A stretch of 64,000 nt of DNA, from the sequence record OR670491. The stretch is one strand, 5' to 3'. The position numbers were made by a program, and so were the translations under genes. The notes under the pieces were generated by a model. The model was given only the letters and a program-made list of their open reading frames with translations. It was not told the origin of the DNA and did no database searches. This DNA comes from Escherichia phage vB_EcoM_JNE01. Of this stretch, positions 47,056-47,820 are shown piece by piece. Each line of letters starts with the position of its first letter. Position 1 is the stretch's first letter.

Positions 47056-47250
47056 ATGACTGACAAAACCTTTTATGATCGTATTATTGAAGACAAGGGT
47101 GTGTTTGATAAAGTAATCTATGATTTGGAACTAATGATCAAAGATTCCCCTAACCCACGAATGCGTACACAGGCTGAGTTTGCAAAAACTTACTTAGTTC
47201 AAGTTCAAGCAATTTGTGAAGCGATTAAAAAACATAACGATGGTGCTTGA
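47056..47250 (+). CDS. small hypothetical protein
   Basis: 64-aa ORF; its 3' end overlaps the promoter of the IF3-like gene. Confidence 0.4.
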   Translation: MTDKTFYDRIIEDKGVFDKVIYDLELMIKDSPNPRMRTQAEFAKTYLVQVQAICEAIKKHNDGA

Positions 47251-47275
47251 CATTACCACCATCAAAATATATAAT
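47247..47275 (+). promoter_or_regulatory. consensus sigma70 promoter (TTGACA, 17-bp spacer, TATAAT) with -35 inside a hairpin loop
   Basis: TTGACA at 47247..47252; TATAAT at 47270..47275; GATGGTG / CACCATC inverted repeat flanks the -35. Confidence 0.6.
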
Positions 47276-47319
47276 TATTACCGTAACGAACATTATAAAA
47301 CATTGGAGCTTTTTATTAC

Positions 47320-47820
47320 ATGAAATCTATTATTGCCAACAACGACATTACTGCAAAAACTGTCCGTCTCGTTTCTGAGACTACTGATGTAGTAAGTATT
47401 ACTGTAGCACGTAATATGGCTGATGATCGTGGCTTAGATTTGGTAGTTGTTAAAGAGGGAGATATTCCTGTTGTTAAACTGGTAGACTTGAACAAGTATA
47501 TCTATGAGCAGAAACAAGCAGAAAAGGCCGCTCTTAAGAAACAGCGTCTAAATACTGTTGGTACTAAAGAAATTCAATTCAACTTCGGTACTCAAGAGCA
47601 TGACCTAGCTATTAAAGCTAAGTCTGCTATGAAGTTCTTAGGTGAAGGTAAGCAAGTTCACATTGTAATGAAAGCTGCTGGACGTGGTAACACCCAAGCA
47701 GTTGTACAAAGCAATATTTCCGCACTGGAAGAATTCGTACAACGCTTAGGTAATGTTACCTATGTACAAAAAGTTGAGTTCCAGGGTAAAAAAGTAACCT
47801 GTACTGTCAAAGTAAAATAA
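47320..47820 (+). CDS. infC: translation initiation factor IF3 homolog (N- and C-terminal domains)
   Basis: Collinear with E. coli IF3: DITAKTVRL vs INGEIRAQEVRL; [26 protein letters not shown] vs [27 protein letters not shown]; Lys-rich linker; [33 protein letters not shown] vs [33 protein letters not shown]. Confidence 0.8.

Follow-up and report, generated by a model that had tools for sequence, protein, structure and literature searches.

The stretch of 64,000 nucleotides from Escherichia phage vB_EcoM_JNE01 (sequence record OR670491) that was analysed here, called the window in the following, contains a gene for a homologue of IF3, a translation initiation factor of bacteria. The gene lies behind a promoter of the sigma70 type and a Shine-Dalgarno (SD) sequence, and its product carries the two IF3 domains joined by a linker helix. 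The features of the locus were mapped as follows.

47247..47275, + strand: sigma70-type promoter, with the -35 element TTGACA at 47247-47252, a 17-nt spacer and the -10 element TATAAT at 47270-47275
47305..47308, + strand: Shine-Dalgarno core GGAG, 11 nt upstream of the IF3 ATG
47320..47820, + strand: coding sequence (CDS) of the IF3 homologue, 166 aa, ATG start, TAA stop
47338..47532, + strand: IF3 N-terminal domain, aa 7-71 (IF3_N, E = 1.6e-16)
47488..47556, + strand: Lys/Gln-rich linker helix, aa 57-79, including Tyr62 (Y75 of E. coli)
47563..47811, + strand: IF3 C-terminal domain, aa 82-164 (IF3_C, E = 4.9e-12)

A preliminary description, made from the letters of the DNA alone, had taken the 166-aa product for a full-length, two-domain IF3, named the conserved blocks GxDLV and KEIxF...G in it, and placed a consensus TTGACA-17-TATAAT promoter directly upstream. 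All three observations were borne out. The Pfam profile IF3_N (PF05198) matched residues 7-71 over profile positions 2-70 of 70 with 60.6 bits against a gathering cut-off of 26.9, and IF3_C (PF00707) matched residues 82-164 over profile positions 3-84 of 86 with 46.1 bits against a cut-off of 34.8. The full-length infC equivalog model TIGR00168 of NCBI scored 98.9 bits (cut-off 60), and a full-length match to PHROG 9787, labelled 'translation initiation factor', was obtained at 1e-59. The two blocks were found as GLDLV at residues 38-42 and as KEIQFNFG at residues 83-90. When sequences of the PDB were searched, the significant matches were IF3 chains only, and the best of them was 8jsg_A (180 residues, 2e-16), the sequence of which is the same as that of 8jsh_A from the E. 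coli 30S-body-IF3 complex. The isoelectric point (pI) of the phage protein was 9.57 with a net charge of +8, the values for E. coli IF3 being 9.54 and +8.

The fold was predicted with AlphaFold2 from an input of 18 sequences, and the mean predicted local distance difference test score (pLDDT) of the model was 76.6. In the model the N domain is alpha/beta, residues 57-79 form a long helix and the C domain has the order beta-alpha-beta-alpha-beta-beta, which agrees with the succession of secondary structures in the IF3 fold (two alpha/beta domains and a long, basic, helical linker). Foldseek searches with this model returned ribosome-bound, full-length IF3 chains at 3e-13 to 1e-11, among them 5lms_X (7e-12) and 5lmn_X (1e-11), and the isolated C domain 1tig was matched with a template modelling (TM) score of 0.82 and a root-mean-square deviation (rmsd) of 2.1 Å. 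The superposition on IF3 chains over the full length gave an rmsd of ~12 Å; because the single-domain fits were good, this value probably reflects a flexible orientation of the two domains. Since the profiles were matched and the predicted fold is that of IF3, the product of 47320..47820 is a genuine two-domain IF3 homologue.

The window was found to be 97.9% identical to the 351-kb genome of Escherichia phage Turkey5, and over a 2-kb stretch (46400..48400) it shares ~77% nucleotide identity with 121Q, PBECO4 and other jumbo phages of the Asteriusvirus type. By these comparisons the phage is a RaK2/121Q-like jumbo phage of a sister lineage of Asteriusvirus and is not T4-like. The IF3 protein has the same amino-acid sequence (100% identity) as XMR01896.1 of Turkey5, which is annotated as 'translation initiation factor IF-3', and shares 72% identity with its homologue in 121Q and 66% with that of the RaK2-type representative P0009 (MAFFT alignment), as well as 52% and 50% with those of GAP32 and CBB, respectively (tblastn). 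In 50,697 phage records searched with tblastn, homologues were present in 88, and 82 of them were nearly full length. They occur in the Klebsiella phages RaK2 and K64-1, in GAP32, CBB, Serratia phage BF, Yersinia phage fHe-Yen9-04, Salmonella phage Munch, Erwinia phages, a Vibrio phage, Agrobacterium phage Atu_ph07 and huge uncultured phages.

Several of these genes have been reported before, in four publications that span 2017-2025. CBB was described as having an IF-3 of its own to which GAP32, 121Q, PBECO4 and RaK2 have homologues (PMC5259590), IF3 was listed for the group 2.2 jumbo phages in a survey (Iyer et al, 2021; PMC7824862), and the translation genes found in huge phages include IF1, IF3, S1, S21 and L7/L12 (Al-Shayeb et al, 2020; PMC7162821). 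The paper on phage Sharanji mentions the IF3 gene and says that its function cannot be stated (PMC11895373). The gene is therefore an already known and annotated standard feature of RaK2/121Q-like phages, conserved and syntenic in this group. In the preliminary description, novelty had been suggested on the ground that IF3 was not known to its author as a standard gene of T4-like phages; this is beside the point, because the phage is not T4-like and IF3 is standard in its own group.

The age of the gene and the selection acting on it were then read from its relatives. The ratio of nonsynonymous to synonymous substitution rates (dN/dS) was 0.12-0.25 among five phage orthologues, and the sole unsaturated pair, GAP32 and CBB, gave 0.115. 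Across 18 aligned sequences, comprising the window protein and 17 relatives, 57 residues were invariant, basic contact residues included. The guanine-plus-cytosine (GC) fraction of the gene (0.379) is close to that of the window (0.369), and the fraction in host infC is 0.486. An exhaustive HMMER search returned 4,901 relatives, just four of them below 1e-30, and the closest relatives outside the clade were metagenome proteins of 36-49% identity, some of them on contigs of 330-619 kb. A recent capture from the host was ruled out by the identity of 35% to E. coli IF3, the phage-like GC content and the metagenomic origin of the nearest outsiders. As judged from these comparisons, the IF3 gene is an old, maintained phage lineage under purifying selection.

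The residues by which E. coli IF3 contacts the 30S subunit and the initiator tRNA were mapped on the phage protein. The correspondences, E. coli residue first, are R25 to R16, R66 to K53, Y75 to Y62, D106 to D95, K110 to K99, R112 to K101, R116 to K105, R129 to K118, R133 to R122 and R168 to K157, and nearly all of the mapped positions are invariant in the 18-member clade. R16 is invariant in 18 of 18 members, Tyr62 is a tyrosine in 17 and a phenylalanine in one, and the 30S/tRNA-contact set of R16, K53, Y62, D95, K99, K101 and R122 is invariant or nearly so. In E. coli, R25 and R66 touch the elbow of the initiator tRNA (PMC9723500), Y75 contacts h23 and its change to asparagine lowers fidelity (PMC5037330), and the roles of the C-domain residues that contact the 30S subunit have been described (PMC3401457). 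Conservation of the C-domain contacts, which had been named as a point to check, was thus found for D95, K99, K101, K105, K118, R122 and K157, and the equivalents of R131, E134 and R99 of the C domain are lost. Because of the selection, the age, the conserved contact residues and a pI and charge equal to those of host IF3, the pattern of conservation fits a working ribosome-binding factor and not a decaying passenger gene.

The same data bear on the possibility that the gene is dispensable, an accessory of bacterial origin that matters little or not at all for infection, and that its promoter match is fortuitous. Such a gene could be expected from the patchy occurrence of IF3 among phages (88 of 50,697 records) and from the fact that it was clearly acquired more than once, the copy in huge phage LR756511 being bacterial-like and in a different context. 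The low dN/dS (0.12-0.25), the 57 residues invariant across 18 sequences with basic contact residues among them, the retention of the gene position in at least three genera and a GC content fully adapted to the phage speak against it, and together with the behaviour of the promoter described next they make this explanation decidedly improbable.

The promoter upstream of the IF3 gene matches the sigma70 (RpoD) consensus sequence at 12 of 12 positions and has no extended -10 TG. It lies in the 69-bp gap between the stop codon of the upstream open reading frame (ORF) and the IF3 ATG, and its -35 element overlaps the TGA stop (47248-47250) of that 64-aa ORF. It is the only perfect TTGACA-17-TATAAT in the 64-kb window, where 0.05 would be expected by chance, and a single perfect match was obtained in 5% of shuffled sequences, a frequency that leaves some room for a fortuitous match. 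When up to one mismatch was allowed, six sites were found in the window, all on the + strand, against 1.47 expected, and none of 100 shuffles reached six. Furthermore, the positions of both the -35 element (TGCTTGAC/TGCTTTAC; TGCTTGAC(A)) and the -10 element (TATAAT/TACAAT) are kept upstream of the orthologues in Turkey5, 121Q, RaK2, GAP32 and CBB. The spacer sequence has diverged meanwhile, and this contrast is a further point against a fortuitous origin. The conservation extends to three phages in which the -35 element does not overlap upstream coding sequence, and the promoter position is common to three phage genera.

The conserved TGCTT before GAC was also considered as a MotA box of the T4 type. 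In T4 middle promoters the MotA box stands ~12 nt from the -10 element, and here the distance is 19 nt; in addition, TGCTTGAC is not enriched in the window (4 seen, 2 expected), and this reading was dropped. A second near-consensus promoter, TTGACA-17-TATGAT with 11 of 12 positions matched, was noted at 47051..47079. Its -35 element contains the ATG (47056) of the 64-aa ORF, so that transcription from it, if it is active, would start inside this ORF.

In CBB and GAP32 a 'divergent RpoD-like' class of promoters has been described, and the authors of the CBB study tied the canonical class to early genes (PMC5259590). By its elements the IF3 promoter is of the canonical class, unlike the divergent type seen elsewhere in the region of the replication genes, and because the canonical class is the one tied to early genes, an early expression of IF3 driven by the host polymerase would be expected. 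Separately, 14 extended -10 motifs TGNTATAAT were observed between 7811 and 58171, all on the + strand, with 5.9 expected in the window (examples are at 17675, 17756, 17831, 40766, 44704 and 51404), and many of them have a GAACA/GGACA/GAGACA-like element ~13 nt upstream. These sites fit the 'divergent RpoD-like' class of CBB and GAP32 by their resemblance and are of another class than the canonical IF3 promoter.

The leader between promoter and gene is unstructured, with a minimum free energy of -0.9 kcal/mol, and 195 of 200 shuffles folded at least as well. No cis-regulatory RNA was found in it (Rfam gave no relevant match), and no tRNA genes were found in the window. The spacing from the GG core to the start codon is 13 for IF3, the mode of 61 neighbouring genes being 8; a spacing of at least 13 occurs in only 5 of the 61, which puts IF3 in the top 8%. 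The arrangement GGAG-N10-13-ATG is kept upstream of IF3 in the relatives. A like arrangement, GGAG followed by 10-11 T-rich nucleotides and ATG, was seen at both the IF3 gene (47305..47319) and the KTSC gene downstream (48439..48453), in each case beyond the modal spacing of the neighbours.

Autoregulation of host IF3 hinges on the AUU start codon of infC, which is disfavoured by IF3 itself. The E. coli gene reads ATT at its start (NC_000913). An ATG occupies this place in the phage gene and in all four orthologues compared, and the phage IF3 should therefore escape the host feedback. The start codons of the surrounding genes were counted in the annotation of the near-identical Turkey5 genome, over the 50 kb that correspond to window positions 14001-64000. 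Of 63 annotated CDS, 62 start with ATG, one with GTG and none with TTG. The heavy use of TTG and GTG starts that the preliminary description had ascribed to this genome was not found, and with it the proposal of a phage IF3 tuned for such starts was rejected.

The gene was found to lie in a conserved block. The order is RNase H, Dda helicase, a structural protein, the 64-aa ORF, IF3, a ClpS-like protein, a KTSC protein, a virion protein and, later, topoisomerase II, and the order around IF3 is identical in Asteriusvirus, Alcyoneusvirus and Mimasvirus. The downstream features are these.

47834..48379, + strand: ClpS-fold protein, 181 aa, beginning 13 nt after the IF3 stop, with an extension at aa 1-73
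48454..48999, + strand: KTSC-domain protein (PF13619, E = 6.9e-14), third member of the conserved cluster
51352..51378, + strand: terminator-like hairpin with a 12-bp stem and a T run, strong

On the + strand no terminator-like site is listed from 47275 to 50037, the one at 50037..50056 is weak, and that at 51352 is the first strong one. The transcription unit that would start from the promoter at 47247 is thus likely to end at the 51352 terminator, and the ClpS-like and KTSC genes are probably co-transcribed with IF3, as far as can be predicted from these signals. The ClpS-like protein scored 18.9 bits with the Pfam ClpS profile, under the cut-off of 23; its residues 74-155 gave a confident model that superimposed on E. 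coli ClpS with TM scores of 0.87-0.91 and an rmsd of 1.2-1.3 Å, and its first 73 residues gave no confident model. A bL12-like identity of this neighbour, suggested by the annotation of the Vibrio phage, was rejected on account of the ClpS fold (TM ~0.9); an L7 structure appears just once among the 50 matches listed, at rank 45 with E = 1.0.

The order IF3, ClpS-like, KTSC is kept in 121Q, RaK2, GAP32 and CBB. In the distant Vibrio phage 2.275.O (3515..4786) the cluster is also kept, with a gene for ribosomal protein S21 directly after IF3 and before the ClpS-like gene. In Atu_ph07, IF3 (gp1) stands directly downstream of a ClpX-like gene (gp2), and on the same strand across the start of the record, genes for ClpS (gp708) and for a threonyl-tRNA synthetase (gp705) lie at distances of ~4 kb and ~6 kb, respectively. 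The latter arrangement loosely echoes the thrS-infC adjacency of bacteria and may hint at the first acquisition of IF3.

IF3, the ClpS-like and the KTSC proteins, with S21 in the Vibrio phage, might form a module that acts jointly, ClpAP for example removing or remodelling host initiation components and the phage factor replacing them. The synteny across 121Q, RaK2, GAP32, CBB and Vibrio phage 2.275.O, the ClpX-like gene next to IF3 and the ClpS gene ~4 kb away in Atu_ph07, the ClpS fold of the neighbour and the 13 nt that separate its start from the IF3 stop are all consistent with such a module. However, the synteny may be plain inheritance, because these phages share ancestry, there is no known link between ClpS and IF3, and huge phage LR756511 has IF3 in another context without ClpS. 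Moreover, the N-degron pocket of the ClpS-like protein seems altered (D36 to P, H66 to N) in a hand alignment to the E. coli ClpS sequence, so that even an adaptor role is doubtful. Joint action of the module is accordingly regarded as unlikely.

Other observations were made in and around this transcription unit. In the segment 51352..51412 an extended -10 promoter (TTGGAA-18-TATAAT, preceded by TG at the -10 element) comes immediately after the terminator hairpin, and this terminator-promoter junction adjoins the start of the gene for the large subunit of topoisomerase II. The Turkey5 annotation contains two CDS named 'large terminase protein' (321 and 1,338 nt, with an overlap of 17 nt) at 1424..3065 of the 50-kb stretch used above (~window 15424..17065), and it gives the name 'DNA polymerase III alpha subunit' to two short CDS at 12623..13261 and 43634..44152 (~window 26623..27261 and 57634..58152). 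These double calls could be split genes, a frameshift or artefacts of annotation.

Taking the protein, its promoter and its start codon together, the reading that we favour, and hold to be moderately probable, is that the gene encodes a functional IF3 homologue which is transcribed early by the host sigma70 machinery, stands outside host autoregulation, binds the 30S subunit and sustains initiation for the phage. The gene would be transcribed by unmodified host RNA polymerase with sigma70 once the DNA has entered the cell, and the early transcript would probably take in the ClpS-like and KTSC genes and stop at the 51352..51378 terminator. Phage IF3 translated from its ATG would not be throttled by the host feedback and would add IF3 activity under the control of the phage. 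It would bind the platform and P-site region of the host 30S subunit as host IF3 does, and would keep 30S subunits free and recycled over a long infection while host gene expression declines. The phage mRNAs led by canonical AUG and SD sequences (98% of local genes) would thereby be favoured; since 62 of 63 local starts are ATG, more IF3 activity would, if anything, favour phage genes over the non-canonical or leaderless starts of the host, contrary to what the preliminary description had proposed for TTG and GTG.

Some points weigh against a factor of this kind. R131, E134 and R99 of E. coli are replaced by A120, G123 and N88 in the phage protein, which may weaken or change its function. With the SD sequence unusually far from the ATG, very high expression is less to be expected. 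The promoter is known as a sequence match and not as a mapped transcription start, and CBB_318, the orthologue in CBB, is not listed in the CBB study's table of promoters of the divergent TGAAAC class. The start codons were counted in the automated annotation of another group, and such pipelines may prefer ATG. The literature searched contained no experiment on a phage IF3, and for this reason the binding to 30S, the timing of expression and the benefit to the phage are all properties that we infer. The literature on related phages was also inspected for a packaging of IF3 into virions and for the timing of its expression: IF3 is not mentioned in the main text of the virion-proteome paper on phAPEC6 or in the omics paper on PA5oct, it is not labelled structural in the annotations of 121Q and CBB, in both of which some neighbours are so labelled, and no transcriptomic data on timing were found in the literature for this phage group.

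The replaced residues lie in part in an exposed loop of the C domain, which reads RFRGRE in E. coli and KAAGRG in the phage. The alignment at position 131 was the same with HMMER and MAFFT and is anchored on the invariant G-R pair. This position is A, V, S, T or Q in all RaK2-like members, H in the Vibrio phage, and K in Atu_ph07 and huge phage LR756511; 107 of 140 further IF3 representatives carry R or K. Position 134 is G or A in the clade and E in 97 of the 140. R131 is a proposed mRNA contact and is involved in start-codon discrimination (PMC3401457). The clade-wide loss of R131 and E134 suggests a codon or mRNA selectivity unlike that of the host factor, in a direction that cannot be read from the sequence. 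Re-tuning of host initiation, which the preliminary description had proposed, is kept here as a hypothesis, and the clade-wide loss of Arg131 would speak for altered selectivity.

These substitutions bring in a competitor or modifier of host IF3, a protein that would take the IF3 site on the host 30S subunit, may displace host IF3, and with its altered loop would relax or shift the discrimination of start sites or mRNAs, so that initiation is reprogrammed to phage messages or host translation is depressed. The loss of R131 in every RaK2-like member and the change of E134 to G or A, at positions where other IF3s mostly keep R/K and E, agree with it, as does the ATG start by which the gene escapes host feedback; binding to 30S should persist, because the equivalents of D106, K110 and R112 are retained. 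On the other hand, a relaxed choice of codons has no obvious gain for the phage, because its genes nearly all start with ATG behind an SD sequence, and the protein retains the equivalents of two fidelity residues, Y75 and R25. We consider this explanation rather unlikely. Unlikely, too, is the combination in which a specialised IF3, early, free of feedback and lacking Arg131 and Glu134, would act with the ClpS-fold and KTSC proteins (and S21 in the Vibrio relative) to seize the 30S platform and alter the choice of mRNAs. The functional homologue that sustains initiation for the phage is thus preferred.

The redirection of the host ribosome by large phages has been the subject of many surveys of gene content and few experiments. 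The existence of the IF3 gene is not news, and only a functional result would be. If it is true that the phage IF3 binds E. coli ribosomes, it would offer an easy entry point through the best-studied initiation system. Isolates such as 121Q, Sharanji and phAPEC6 are available as cultures, and a loss of Arg131 that is specific to the clade provides a concrete mutational hypothesis. With its altered loop, its freedom from AUU control and its place in a conserved module, the gene lends itself to clean tests in the translation system that is understood best.

When compared with known systems, the phage protein has the domains, the linker and the fold of bacterial IF3 (E. coli InfC, P0A707; structures 5lmn, 5lms, 8jsh, 1tig and 1tif). 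It is like E. coli InfC in pI and net charge and shares most of the 30S/tRNA-contact residues, whereas the sequence identity is 35% over 120 aa and the phage protein lacks the basic tail with which E. coli IF3 begins (residues 1-9). E. coli infC is flanked by thrS and rpmI in the thrS-infC-rpmI-rplT operon and has an autoregulatory AUU start, while the phage gene lies among replication genes, starts with ATG and has its own consensus sigma70 promoter. For the IF3s in the surveys of huge and jumbo phages (PMC7162821, PMC7824862), a role in intercepting or supporting host translation has likewise been proposed; at least some huge phages acquired their copy independently, in a more bacterial-like form and with other genes around it, and the copy of LR756511 has both K131 and E134 and a long, basic N-terminal tail. 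The closest systems are the annotated IF3s of jumbo phages, namely XMR01896.1 of Turkey5, gp47 of 121Q, that of PBECO4, ORF153 of RaK2, GAP32_313, CBB_318 and WNN14575.1 of Sharanji, which represent the same gene and are alike in length, synteny, promoter position and ATG start, with no substantive difference from the gene in the window.

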